Shown one piece after another: positions 59,457 to 60,050 of a stretch of DNA of 64,000 nucleotides. The notes beneath the pieces are model-generated. The model saw nothing but the letters and a program-made list of their open reading frames with translations. It ran no database searches and was not told the origin of the DNA. The position numbers were made by a program, and so were the translations under genes. Where the stretch lies: assembly GCA_040756875.1 (NCBI GenBank), contig JBFLYH010000002.1, positions 981,246 to 1,045,245 of the forward strand, written 5' to 3'. Source of the stretch: a candidate division FCPU426 bacterium. GTDB taxonomy: Bacteria; Oederibacteriota; JAAXVQ01; JAUVAV01. Numbering within the stretch: position 1 is the stretch's first letter; every line of letters starts with the position of its first letter.

Positions 59457-60050
59457 ATGATGATTATGCCGAGAAAAACCATTGTGGTTTTTATAATGGC
59501 CTTTTTTACATCTTTCCCGCTCCATGCCGCCACTTCCGACCAGCATGGTCTGGAGCCAGTGGTTGTCAATGCCGGGGGATCGACCCTTTCCGGCAATGGC
59601 CGGCAGTTACTGGATTCCATAGGCGAATCCATTATTAACCAAACCTGGGGAAGCTCCTTCTCGATCCAAGCCGGTTTTTTCAGCGATTATTTTATTCTGC
59701 CTCCCACGCCGACCGTAACTCCCACGGTAACAGCCACCAGCACGCCCATACGCGGTTTTGGCGGAGAATTGCTGAGCGAATCATGGGTTTATGCCGCCCC
59801 CAATCCTATCCGGGGATTTCGCGCCAATATCGTCTATCACCTGGCTGAACCGGCGGAAGTGGAGATCAAGGTATTTACGGTCAACAATGACCTGGTTATT
59901 TCCAAGCATTGGGATAATGTTGCGGCTGGCGAAAACCATTGGTATTGGAACACCTCAGGAATATCCAATGGGGTATATTTGCTGTTGGTTAAAGCCAAGG
60001 GGCAGGGCAGGAGCACGATTATAAAGAAAAAAATCGCATTAGTGCATTGA
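59457..60050 (+). CDS. secreted protein with T9SS/Por-type C-terminal sorting-domain-like tail
   Basis: Signal peptide; C-terminus PNPIRG...VEIKVFTVNNDLV...AGENHWYWN...GVYLLLVKAKGQGRSTIIKKKIALVH follows the Por_Secre_tail pattern. Confidence 0.5.
   Translation: MMIMPRKTIVVFIMAFFTSFPLHAATSDQHGLEPVVVNAGGSTLSGNGRQLLDSIGESIINQTWGSSFSIQAGFFSDYFILPPTPTVTPTVTATSTPIRGFGGELLSESWVYAAPNPIRGFRANIVYHLAEPAEVEIKVFTVNNDLVISKHWDNVAAGENHWYWNTSGISNGVYLLLVKAKGQGRSTIIKKKIALVH

Follow-up and report, generated by a model that had tools for sequence, protein, structure and literature searches.

A small protein with a type A-like C-terminal sorting domain, encoded next to a fibre-like gene in a candidate division FCPU426 bacterium

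Introduction

A small secreted protein, encoded near the end of a 64,000-nucleotide stretch of DNA from a candidate division FCPU426 bacterium (contig JBFLYH010000002.1; the whole stretch is referred to below as the window), raises the question of whether its C-terminal tail is a type IX secretion system (T9SS) sorting domain and, if so, what the protein does at the cell surface. A sequence-only reading of the window had recognized a Por-type C-terminal sorting tail on this protein, had taken it to imply a type IX-like export route, and had remarked that the surrounding gene content was not Bacteroidota-like. The last remark was correct, the organism being assigned to candidate division FCPU426, whose 16S cluster groups with Goldbacteria and has Firestonebacteria and Elusimicrobia as neighbours (PMC7031533).

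Results

The gene and its product

The open reading frame (ORF) of the small protein was confirmed on the forward strand with a length of 197 residues, and its translation contains PNPIRG, VEIKVFTVNNDLV, AGENHWYWN and GVYLLLVKAKGQGRSTIIKKKIALVH, the strings quoted for the tail by the earlier reading. The identical product is listed in GenBank with 194 residues as MEW6517385.1 (AB1439_10840), a "hypothetical protein" of a candidate division FCPU426 metagenome-assembled genome (MAG), on a contig of 1,134,623 bp. The GenBank length corresponds to a start at the third ATG, at 59466; given this call and the sequence AAAGGA located 7–9 nt upstream, 59466 is probably the true start. Residues are numbered here according to the 197-residue ORF. 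As shown in Table 1, the protein consists of a Sec signal peptide, an N-terminal module (the head), a Pro/Thr-rich linker and an extended C-terminal domain (CTD), which ends at the final residue. The signal peptide was recognized by inspection (LHA/A) and by a helix at residues 6–24 in the AlphaFold2 (AF2) model.

The tail as a type A sorting domain

A homologue search with the window protein yielded 55 proteins, 52 of them with the same architecture at 158–209 residues. The family alignment and the family-level profile counts given below are based on 34 of these homologues.

The TIGR04183 search proposed by the earlier reading gave a match over residues 114–191 with an E-value of 2.1e-4, although its score of 21.2 bits lies under the cut-off of 23. 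PF18962 was matched at E 1.5e-4 with 22.5 bits, against a gathering score of 27. The best profile match of the tail was to the last ~95 positions of NF052323 (E 2.4e-13, 49 bits). At the family level, TIGR04183 was matched by 33 of the 34 homologues at E<=0.01, the best at 6e-8, and homologues with 46–57% identity passed its cut-off with 25.1–32.5 bits; the NF052323 tail was matched by all 34. Membership in FlgD_ig (PF13860) was not reached by the window protein (14.7 bits against a gathering score of 27, E 0.03).

Type A CTDs are marked by a PNP motif, a G-x-Y motif and a Lys-rich last strand. The corresponding region of the window protein carries PNPIRG, NGVYLL and KKIALVH. In the 34-sequence alignment, P115, P117, R119, N171, G172 and Y174 were invariant, with K191 and K192 nearly so.

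When AF2 was run with the family alignment, residues 100–197 were predicted with pLDDT values of 91–98, and seven strands were placed between residues 111 and 196. This predicted fold agrees with the description of the solved RgpB CTD, a seven-strand Ig-like sandwich, CTDs having a size of 60–100 residues (PMC4804311). A Foldseek search of the CTD model against the PDB, dominated by generic Ig-like sandwiches, also returned FlgD, the mirolase CTD (8qb1) and, at 23% identity, PorZ (5m11); it is taken as confirmation of the fold only.

On the basis of profiles, motifs, the predicted structure and the reuse of the tail described below, the assignment of the C-terminal domain as a T9SS type A CTD is well supported at the level of the family, and to that extent the earlier recognition of a Por-type tail held. 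Like the Bacteroidota type A CTDs (TIGR04183/PF18962; RgpB, PorZ 5m11, mirolase 8qb1), the domain closes, with ~85–100 residues, the C-terminus of a protein exported by Sec, forms a predicted seven-strand Ig-like sandwich with the three motifs, and occurs on many unrelated passengers per genome. It differs from them in its FCPU426 host, outside the Bacteroidota and the FCB superphylum, in scoring just under the curated cut-offs in this copy, in a fixed lead-in composed of the Pro/Thr linker and TP[IL]xxFxGxll, and in a passenger of merely ~75 residues. The final ~100 positions of NF052323, a model of a T9SS-dependent M6-like inactivated metalloprotease, represent the same extended linker-plus-CTD module; however, only this tail is matched, with 49 bits where the cut-off for the whole protein is 600, and the metalloprotease-like body is missing from the window protein.

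Distribution of the family and reuse of the tail

When the family alignment was used to scan one genome per GTDB species, 37 loci were obtained. Among these, full-length family members were found only in FCPU426 MAGs, further MAGs and one Goldiibacteriota MAG, and none in Bacteroidota. The PorV-like, CTD and fibre proteins of a 6.6-kb contig labelled "uncultured Anaerolineae bacterium" (CAZGYW010000149.1, locus L011) are those of locus L012 (GCA_964630235.1), and the contig is identical to part of another MAG; it is probably mis-binned, not an Anaerolineae occurrence of the family.

Many of the 37 loci match the tail alone, and the ORFs behind these tail-only matches range from 180 to 1283 residues. 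Among the tail-bearing ORFs of related genomes are those of an S8 protease, of delta-60 repeat proteins and of choice-of-anchor B proteins, and most of the tail-bearing ORFs score above the TIGR04183 cut-off. With a local hidden Markov model, 43 non-redundant CTD ORFs were counted in 545 kb of FCPU426-type loci, with a common extended module in which a Pro/Thr-rich linker is followed by TP[IL]xxFxGxll and the sandwich. The window itself holds one such ORF, that of the small protein, the reuse of the tail being seen in the related MAGs. A homologue search with the alignment of the N-terminal domain gave no matches, and one with the CTD alignment returned short proteins only. Since one tail is carried by many unrelated passengers, always at the extreme C-terminus, it looks like a sorting signal in this lineage, as judged from the sequences.

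A recurrent pairing was also observed, in which a lipoprotein of ~460–520 residues (LSSCA…GPLSP) is encoded upstream of a CTD protein of 1220–1280 residues (L025, 2366..10324; L035, 1326..10291; L029, 209..5660). In L025 and L035, an outer-membrane-protein-like protein of ~595 residues is present in addition. The L025 lipoprotein/CTD pair gave no matches among PDB sequences.

PorV/PorQ-family barrels and the T9SS core

The 1.13-Mb contig to which the window belongs encodes MEW6516917.1, a protein of 589 residues named "PorV/PorQ family protein" by PGAP. It matched NF033709 (PorV/PorQ family) with 131.8 bits (cut-off 90) and the solved PorV of F. johnsoniae (6h3i_F) at E 4e-4. Its gene directly adjoins that of MEW6516916.1 (AB1439_08435, P0028), a paralogue of the window CTD protein. 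Both a TIGR04183 match and a gene of a T9SS-associated family were thus found, the latter on the same contig.

The search for T9SS components covered ~545 kb. Fourteen PorV/PorQ-like ORFs were found in 545 kb of related loci, and seven of the ten tested scored above the NF033709 cut-off, while no PorV/PorQ-like protein found here attained the PorV or PorQ equivalog cut-off. A PorV/PorQ-like gene was located within 5 kb of 16 of the 43 CTD ORFs and within 300 bp of seven.

A barrel gene beside a CTD gene (L001, L012 and seven further adjacent pairs) resembles the PorQ–PorZ, PorV–PorU and type B CTD/PorP-SprF pairs, and by this analogy the adjacent genes may encode cognate partners that fix the CTD protein at the surface (PMC12618676, PMC9143113). 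A single PorV serves every type A CTD of F. johnsoniae, and it is for type B CTDs, with PorP-SprF, that shuttles are gene-linked (PMC12618676). The type A-like CTDs of the present lineage are instead linked to multiple PorV/PorQ paralogues, which would be a variant, since the type A CTDs of Bacteroidota share a single PorV.

Some of the paralogues are fused to further domains. The fusion in L001 (8195..9964) carries a Pro/Thr-rich linker and a second barrel-like domain, those in L022 (9406..11262) and L028 (4694..6568) OmpA_C peptidoglycan-binding domains, and that in L038 (5409..6728) TPR repeats. To our knowledge, no PorV/PorQ protein with any of these fusions has been described. A mobile CTD-protein/PorV pair has a precedent in the conjugative Bacteroidota plasmid pEMTOL01 of Emticicia oligotrophica (L046, 6325..8294), where a small protein named "T9SS type A sorting domain-containing protein" is encoded directly upstream of its own porV paralogue; its sequence is unrelated to the window family.

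SprA, GldKLMN and PorU were not found in the sequence covered. Regarding SprA/Sov, the only ORF above 2000 residues in the related FCPU426-type loci encodes a YD-repeat protein, the 2259-residue ORF of the window has no significant Pfam or NCBIfam match, and nothing SprA-like was present among the 25 window proteins scanned. GldK/L/M/N (PorK/L/M/N) were found neither among these 25 proteins nor among selected ORFs of the related loci. Over the window and the related loci, tblastn with PorU of Parabacteroides distasonis gave CTD-level matches only, in a non-FCPU426 locus, whereas PorV of the same species detected the PorV-like genes. Scanned with NCBIfam, the largest ORFs of the related loci that had lacked an explanation came out as YD-repeat, Kelch-like and TPR proteins, glycosyltransferases and an S8 protease, and phmmer of concatenated secreted ORFs against the PDB gave nothing T9SS-like, with weak NHL-repeat similarity only.

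The export route proposed earlier is supported in part, by the PorV/PorQ family and the repertoire of CTD cargo, while SprA, GldKLMN and PorU were not found in the region searched. From these data we infer that a type IX-like route may serve the window protein.

The neighbouring fibre gene

Gene context was compared across the loci of paralogues and orthologues. In all 16 distinct loci, the window included, a gene for a protein resembling mosaic adhesive trimer (MAT) fibres is the next or next-but-one gene after the family gene, and this holds across 34–80% protein identity. The fibre proteins of this cassette are secreted, with 255–340 residues, a conserved N-terminal region of ~100 residues (INYQGRLTD…) and a variable C-terminus.

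The window fibre, MEW6517386.1, matched NF053851 (MAT fibre N-domain) over residues 14–85 with 35.6 bits and E 7.6e-9, the cut-off being 60; a paralogous fibre neighbour scored 34.3 bits. With the Bdellovibrio MAT fibres (NF053851; PMC10769870), the neighbour shares the order of signal peptide, conserved beta-rich N-domain (INYQGRLTD...) and variable C-terminal part. It differs from them in size (255–340 against ~600–1200 residues), in its score (35.6 against the cut-off of 60 bits) and in the pairing with a small CTD protein, which is unreported for Bdellovibrio. An S74 domain was not detected in the MAT-like neighbour.

At most cassette loci, a GT39/PMT_2 membrane glycosyltransferase comes next, often together with a GT2 protein, and one locus is situated inside an exopolysaccharide (EPS) gene cluster. 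In the window, this position is taken by a polytopic membrane protein, MEW6517387.1, for which AF2 without an alignment gave an unusable model (pLDDT 36). Just upstream of the CTD gene, a 313-residue lipoprotein is encoded, which was assigned to no family. In L018 and L021, tblastn detected homologues of it (E ~1e-18), located upstream of family members at a distance of a few kb.

The N-terminal head module

The head follows the consensus S.NY.L..V.N..GNT..G.G..L.DS.GE..GQ..G...S.QAGFFNDYF. Of the 34 family members, 17 match the PamT model (NF058579) over its first ~78 positions, down to E 1.3e-7, with the remainder of the model unmatched. Scores against this model were 11.8 bits (E 0.11) for the window protein, 12–31 bits for the 34 family members and up to 55.7 bits (P0093) for more distant carriers of the head. 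The match, with its E of 0.11 at first, had been regarded as signal-peptide noise, an explanation that was dropped since the match is reproducible across the family. Membership in PamT was likewise rejected, as the cut-off is 240 bits and only profile positions ~5–78 (up to 92) of 241 match.

With PamT, the proposed tip pilin of the Pam pilus of the candidate phyla radiation (bioRxiv 10.64898/2026.03.03.709456), the family shares a signal peptide followed by a ~55-residue module of the pattern S.NY.L ... GQ ... S..Y.L..GF, while the Ig-like body of PamT is replaced here by the Pro/Thr linker and the CTD. No Pam chaperones or pilins were found beside the CTD gene.

A profile of the head module, searched against 1.84 billion representative sequences, retrieved 129 proteins, mostly small and secreted, with the module right after the signal peptide. 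The C-terminus joined to the module varies and can be a CTD or FlgD-like tail, a body resembling PamT, a transmembrane anchor or a MYXO-CTERM-like tail. As a small head is thus combined with lineage-appropriate anchors, it fits a surface-exposed element that may serve in binding or nucleation. The module (S.NY.L…GQ…S..Y.L..GF) was also observed as repeats in very large proteins, and no Pfam family of its own was present among the matches.

The low-GC island

At about 56.8–57.0 kb of the window, the GC content falls from ~0.65 to 0.37–0.50. The same behaviour was seen elsewhere: in genomes of 0.60–0.69 GC, the cassette forms a low-GC island (0.33–0.55) with normal DNA on both sides, in one example inside an arginine operon. 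The islands extend over ~56800..64000 in the window, 8–13 kb in L001, 6–15 kb in L009, 8–15 kb in L010, 8–13 kb in L012 and 11–16 kb in L019. The drop at the window end is explained by the cassettes elsewhere being low-GC islands. Relatives of lower GC (~0.45) hold the same cassette, and these observations suggest that it is exchanged between lineages.

Within the 2259-residue secreted protein, the GC content switches in frame, from 0.65 up to ~56750 to 0.49 over the last ~400 codons, and a GxSxG-like hydrolase motif, VVAHSQGT, lies in the C-terminal part of low GC. The ORF is followed, with a 4-nt overlap, by a 166-residue membrane ORF. By its sequences, the arrangement resembles that of a polymorphic toxin, the C-terminal domain of which can be exchanged, and its immunity gene. 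The last ORF of the island, which runs off the window end, shows the SGNH/GDSL motifs FIGDSITRG and ELGTNDW and a C-terminal D/H pair; its product is likely a glycan O-acyl-modifying enzyme.

Other features of the window

The features are collected in Table 1. The stop codon of the CTD gene is directly followed, ahead of the fibre gene, by a GC-rich hairpin, which gave no match in a scan for consensus terminators and may act as an attenuator or RNA-stability element between the two genes.

Upstream of the CTD cassette, a dense glycosylation region contains five GT-C-type membrane proteins and further holds two GT2 proteins, one GT4 protein, a methyltransferase and two NHL-repeat proteins. Near the beginning of the window, a BatA-D-like (aerotolerance operon) set with a VWA+TPR protein and a BatD protein is followed by homocitrate/isopropylmalate synthase-like, isocitrate/isopropylmalate dehydrogenase and aconitase genes.

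Table 1. Positions of the features discussed (nucleotides of the window; residues of the 197-residue ORF).
Feature	Position	Strand	Remarks
BatA-D-like set	2643..7633		VWA+TPR protein and BatD protein
Dense glycosylation region	27372..50875		Five GT-C-type membrane proteins
TMEM260-like GT-C-type protein	27372..29621	-	
DUF2298 GT-C-type protein	30213..32615		
PMT_2 protein with zinc ribbon	32676..34688		
PMT_2 proteins with C-terminal PA14 (two)	37938..41534 and 48137..50875		
Secreted protein, 2259 residues	51157..57936	+	In-frame GC switch
Membrane ORF, 166 residues	57933..58433		4-nt overlap with preceding ORF
Lipoprotein, 313 residues	58423..59364	+	Just upstream of CTD gene
Small CTD protein gene	59457..60050	+	ORF 197 residues; GenBank 194 residues
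Sec signal peptide, residues 1-24	59457..59528	+	MPRKTIVVFIMAFFTSFPLHA/ATS, cleavage ...FFTSFPLHA/ATS; inspection, AF2 helix at residues 6-24
N-terminal module (~55 residues), residues 25-80	59529..59696	+	Family alignment, profiles
Pro/Thr-rich linker, residues 81-97	59697..59747	+	LPPTPTVTPTVTATSTP; alignment
Extended T9SS type A-like CTD, residues 98-197	59748..60047	+	IRGFGGELLSESW lead-in and seven-strand beta-sandwich; profiles, alignment, AF2
Hairpin, 11-bp, GC-rich	60058..60087	+	Without U-tract; after stop codon of CTD gene, before fibre gene
Fibre-like secreted protein, 277 residues	60149..60982	+	MEW6517386.1; N-terminal domain resembles Bdellovibrio MAT fibre N-domain
Polytopic membrane protein, 631 residues	60992..62887	+	MEW6517387.1; takes GT39/PMT_2 position of other cassettes
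SGNH/GDSL ORF	63026..64000	+	Runs off window end

Discussion

A proposed role as surface adaptor

The N-domain of MAT fibres "presumably tightly binds a surface element", the identity of which was left open in the Bdellovibrio study (PMC10769870). Owing to the strict synteny with the fibre gene, the small CTD protein is a candidate for such an element, and it is proposed, with confidence about evenly balanced, that it is a CTD-sorted surface adaptor for the MAT-like fibre.

According to this proposal, the protein would be exported by Sec to the periplasm, where the seven-strand C-terminal sandwich would act as the sorting signal and would be recognized by outer-membrane barrels of the PorV/PorQ family. 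A type IX-like route, possibly a complete T9SS, would then take the protein across the outer membrane to the cell surface and hold it there, either bound to the barrel, as PorZ is by PorQ, or attached after removal of the CTD. The Pro/Thr linker would keep the small head away from the membrane. The head would dock the product of the next gene, a trimeric, phage-tail-fibre-like (MAT-like) protein, at its N-terminal domain, and together the two would present an adhesive fibre on the cell. The GT39/GT2 enzymes encoded nearby in most cassettes may glycosylate the linker or the fibre.

Several observations weigh against this proposal. The window copy scores under both curated cut-offs, those of TIGR04183 (21.2 against 23) and PF18962 (22.5 against 27), and the top Foldseek matches of its CTD model are generic Ig-like sandwiches, not CTDs. 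AF2 confidence was low over the N-terminal module (pLDDT 42–62). Regarding the route, no SprA-sized candidate, PorU or recognizable GldKLMN was found in the window or the ~480 kb of related loci, and a PorV/PorQ gene is adjacent in only two of the 16 distinct family loci (L001, L012), with none beside the window copy. The host does not fall within the Bacteroidota/FCB superphylum, to which published work restricts the T9SS, and the literature searched contained no paper linking the T9SS with Goldbacteria, Elusimicrobia, Firestonebacteria or FCPU426. As for glycosylation, Pro/Thr linkers precede the CTD in most cargo of the related genomes, so the linker is not a specific tie to the neighbouring glycosyltransferase, and the 631-residue membrane protein has no similarity to the GT39 proteins of other cassettes that phmmer or blastp could detect.

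Alternative explanations

The same negative results for the T9SS core in the window and related loci, together with a phylum outside the FCB group (PMC7031533), would be expected if the CTD were merely a structural Ig-like or FlgD-like sandwich and the organism had no type IX secretion, the protein being a PamT-related pilus or fibre subunit, or a tip, joined to the fibre by strand complementation. In line with this explanation are the matches to PamT (NF058579), reaching E 1.3e-7, over the first ~70 residues of family members, the weak FlgD_ig match, the FlgD structure in the Foldseek list and an N-domain that is predicted poorly alone, as an incomplete fold would be. It is nevertheless considered unlikely, because the PamT match is limited to positions ~5–78 of 241 and is far under 240 bits, Pam-type chaperones are absent beside the CTD gene, PorV/PorQ-family genes are abundant and gene-linked to CTD proteins, and the CTD is always at the extreme C-terminus and common to proteases and unrelated large proteins. 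Alternatively, the protein may be ordinary T9SS-type cargo with no functional tie to the fibre, many CTD cargo proteins of these genomes being functionally unrelated; the CTD would be cleaved and a mature part of ~75 residues, for example a glycan- or cell-binding peptide, be released or attached to the surface alone, with the synteny reflecting only co-regulation in a surface/glycosylation island. The location of the cassette in low-GC, glycosyltransferase-rich islands that shuffle surface genes and the hairpin between the CTD and fibre genes would suit such a protein. What makes it a doubtful account is the CTD-to-fibre order, which is kept in 16 of 16 loci while the other surroundings vary (arginine operon, EPS cluster, Tad-like genes), and the N-domain, which never occurs outside this arrangement in the loci examined.

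A third explanation, under which the low-GC end (57–64 kb) stems through mis-assembly from a different organism, for instance one of the Bacteroidota, would make the CTD uninformative about FCPU426. It would account for the fall from ~0.65 to 0.37–0.50 at about 56.8–57.0 kb, yet the switch lies inside one continuous ORF of 2259 residues, and full-length family members occur only in FCPU426/Goldbacteria-type MAGs, not in Bacteroidota. As independent assemblies show flanking DNA of 0.60–0.69 GC on both sides of the cassette (the arginine operon in L001 and L012; also L009, L010 and L019), a chimera was rejected as the cause of the drop and is regarded as very improbable.

Significance

The reading of the small protein as a CTD-sorted adaptor can be extended to the lineage as a whole: FCPU426/Goldbacteria-type bacteria would possess a type IX-like pathway of their own, with gene-linked and partly fused PorV/PorQ paralogues and possibly without PorU or SprA, and the small protein would be a MAT-type anchor, its PamT-like head docking the fibre and its CTD sitting on a barrel. 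In this full form, the proposal is speculative and, on balance, improbable. The tail itself is of a known type; what is new is the lineage, the paralogue-rich PorV/PorQ linkage, and an adaptor architecture of head, linker and CTD paired with a MAT-like fibre.

At the level of annotation, MEW6517385.1 can be renamed as a T9SS type A sorting domain-containing protein. The taxonomic reach of CTD-based sorting would be widened by a complete CTD cargo set together with multiple PorV/PorQ barrels in a Goldbacteria-related phylum, and such a lineage would offer comparative material on which parts of the T9SS are essential. Through its strict pairing with a MAT-like fibre, the small CTD protein is a concrete candidate, open to testing, for the element by which MAT-type fibres are kept at the cell surface.

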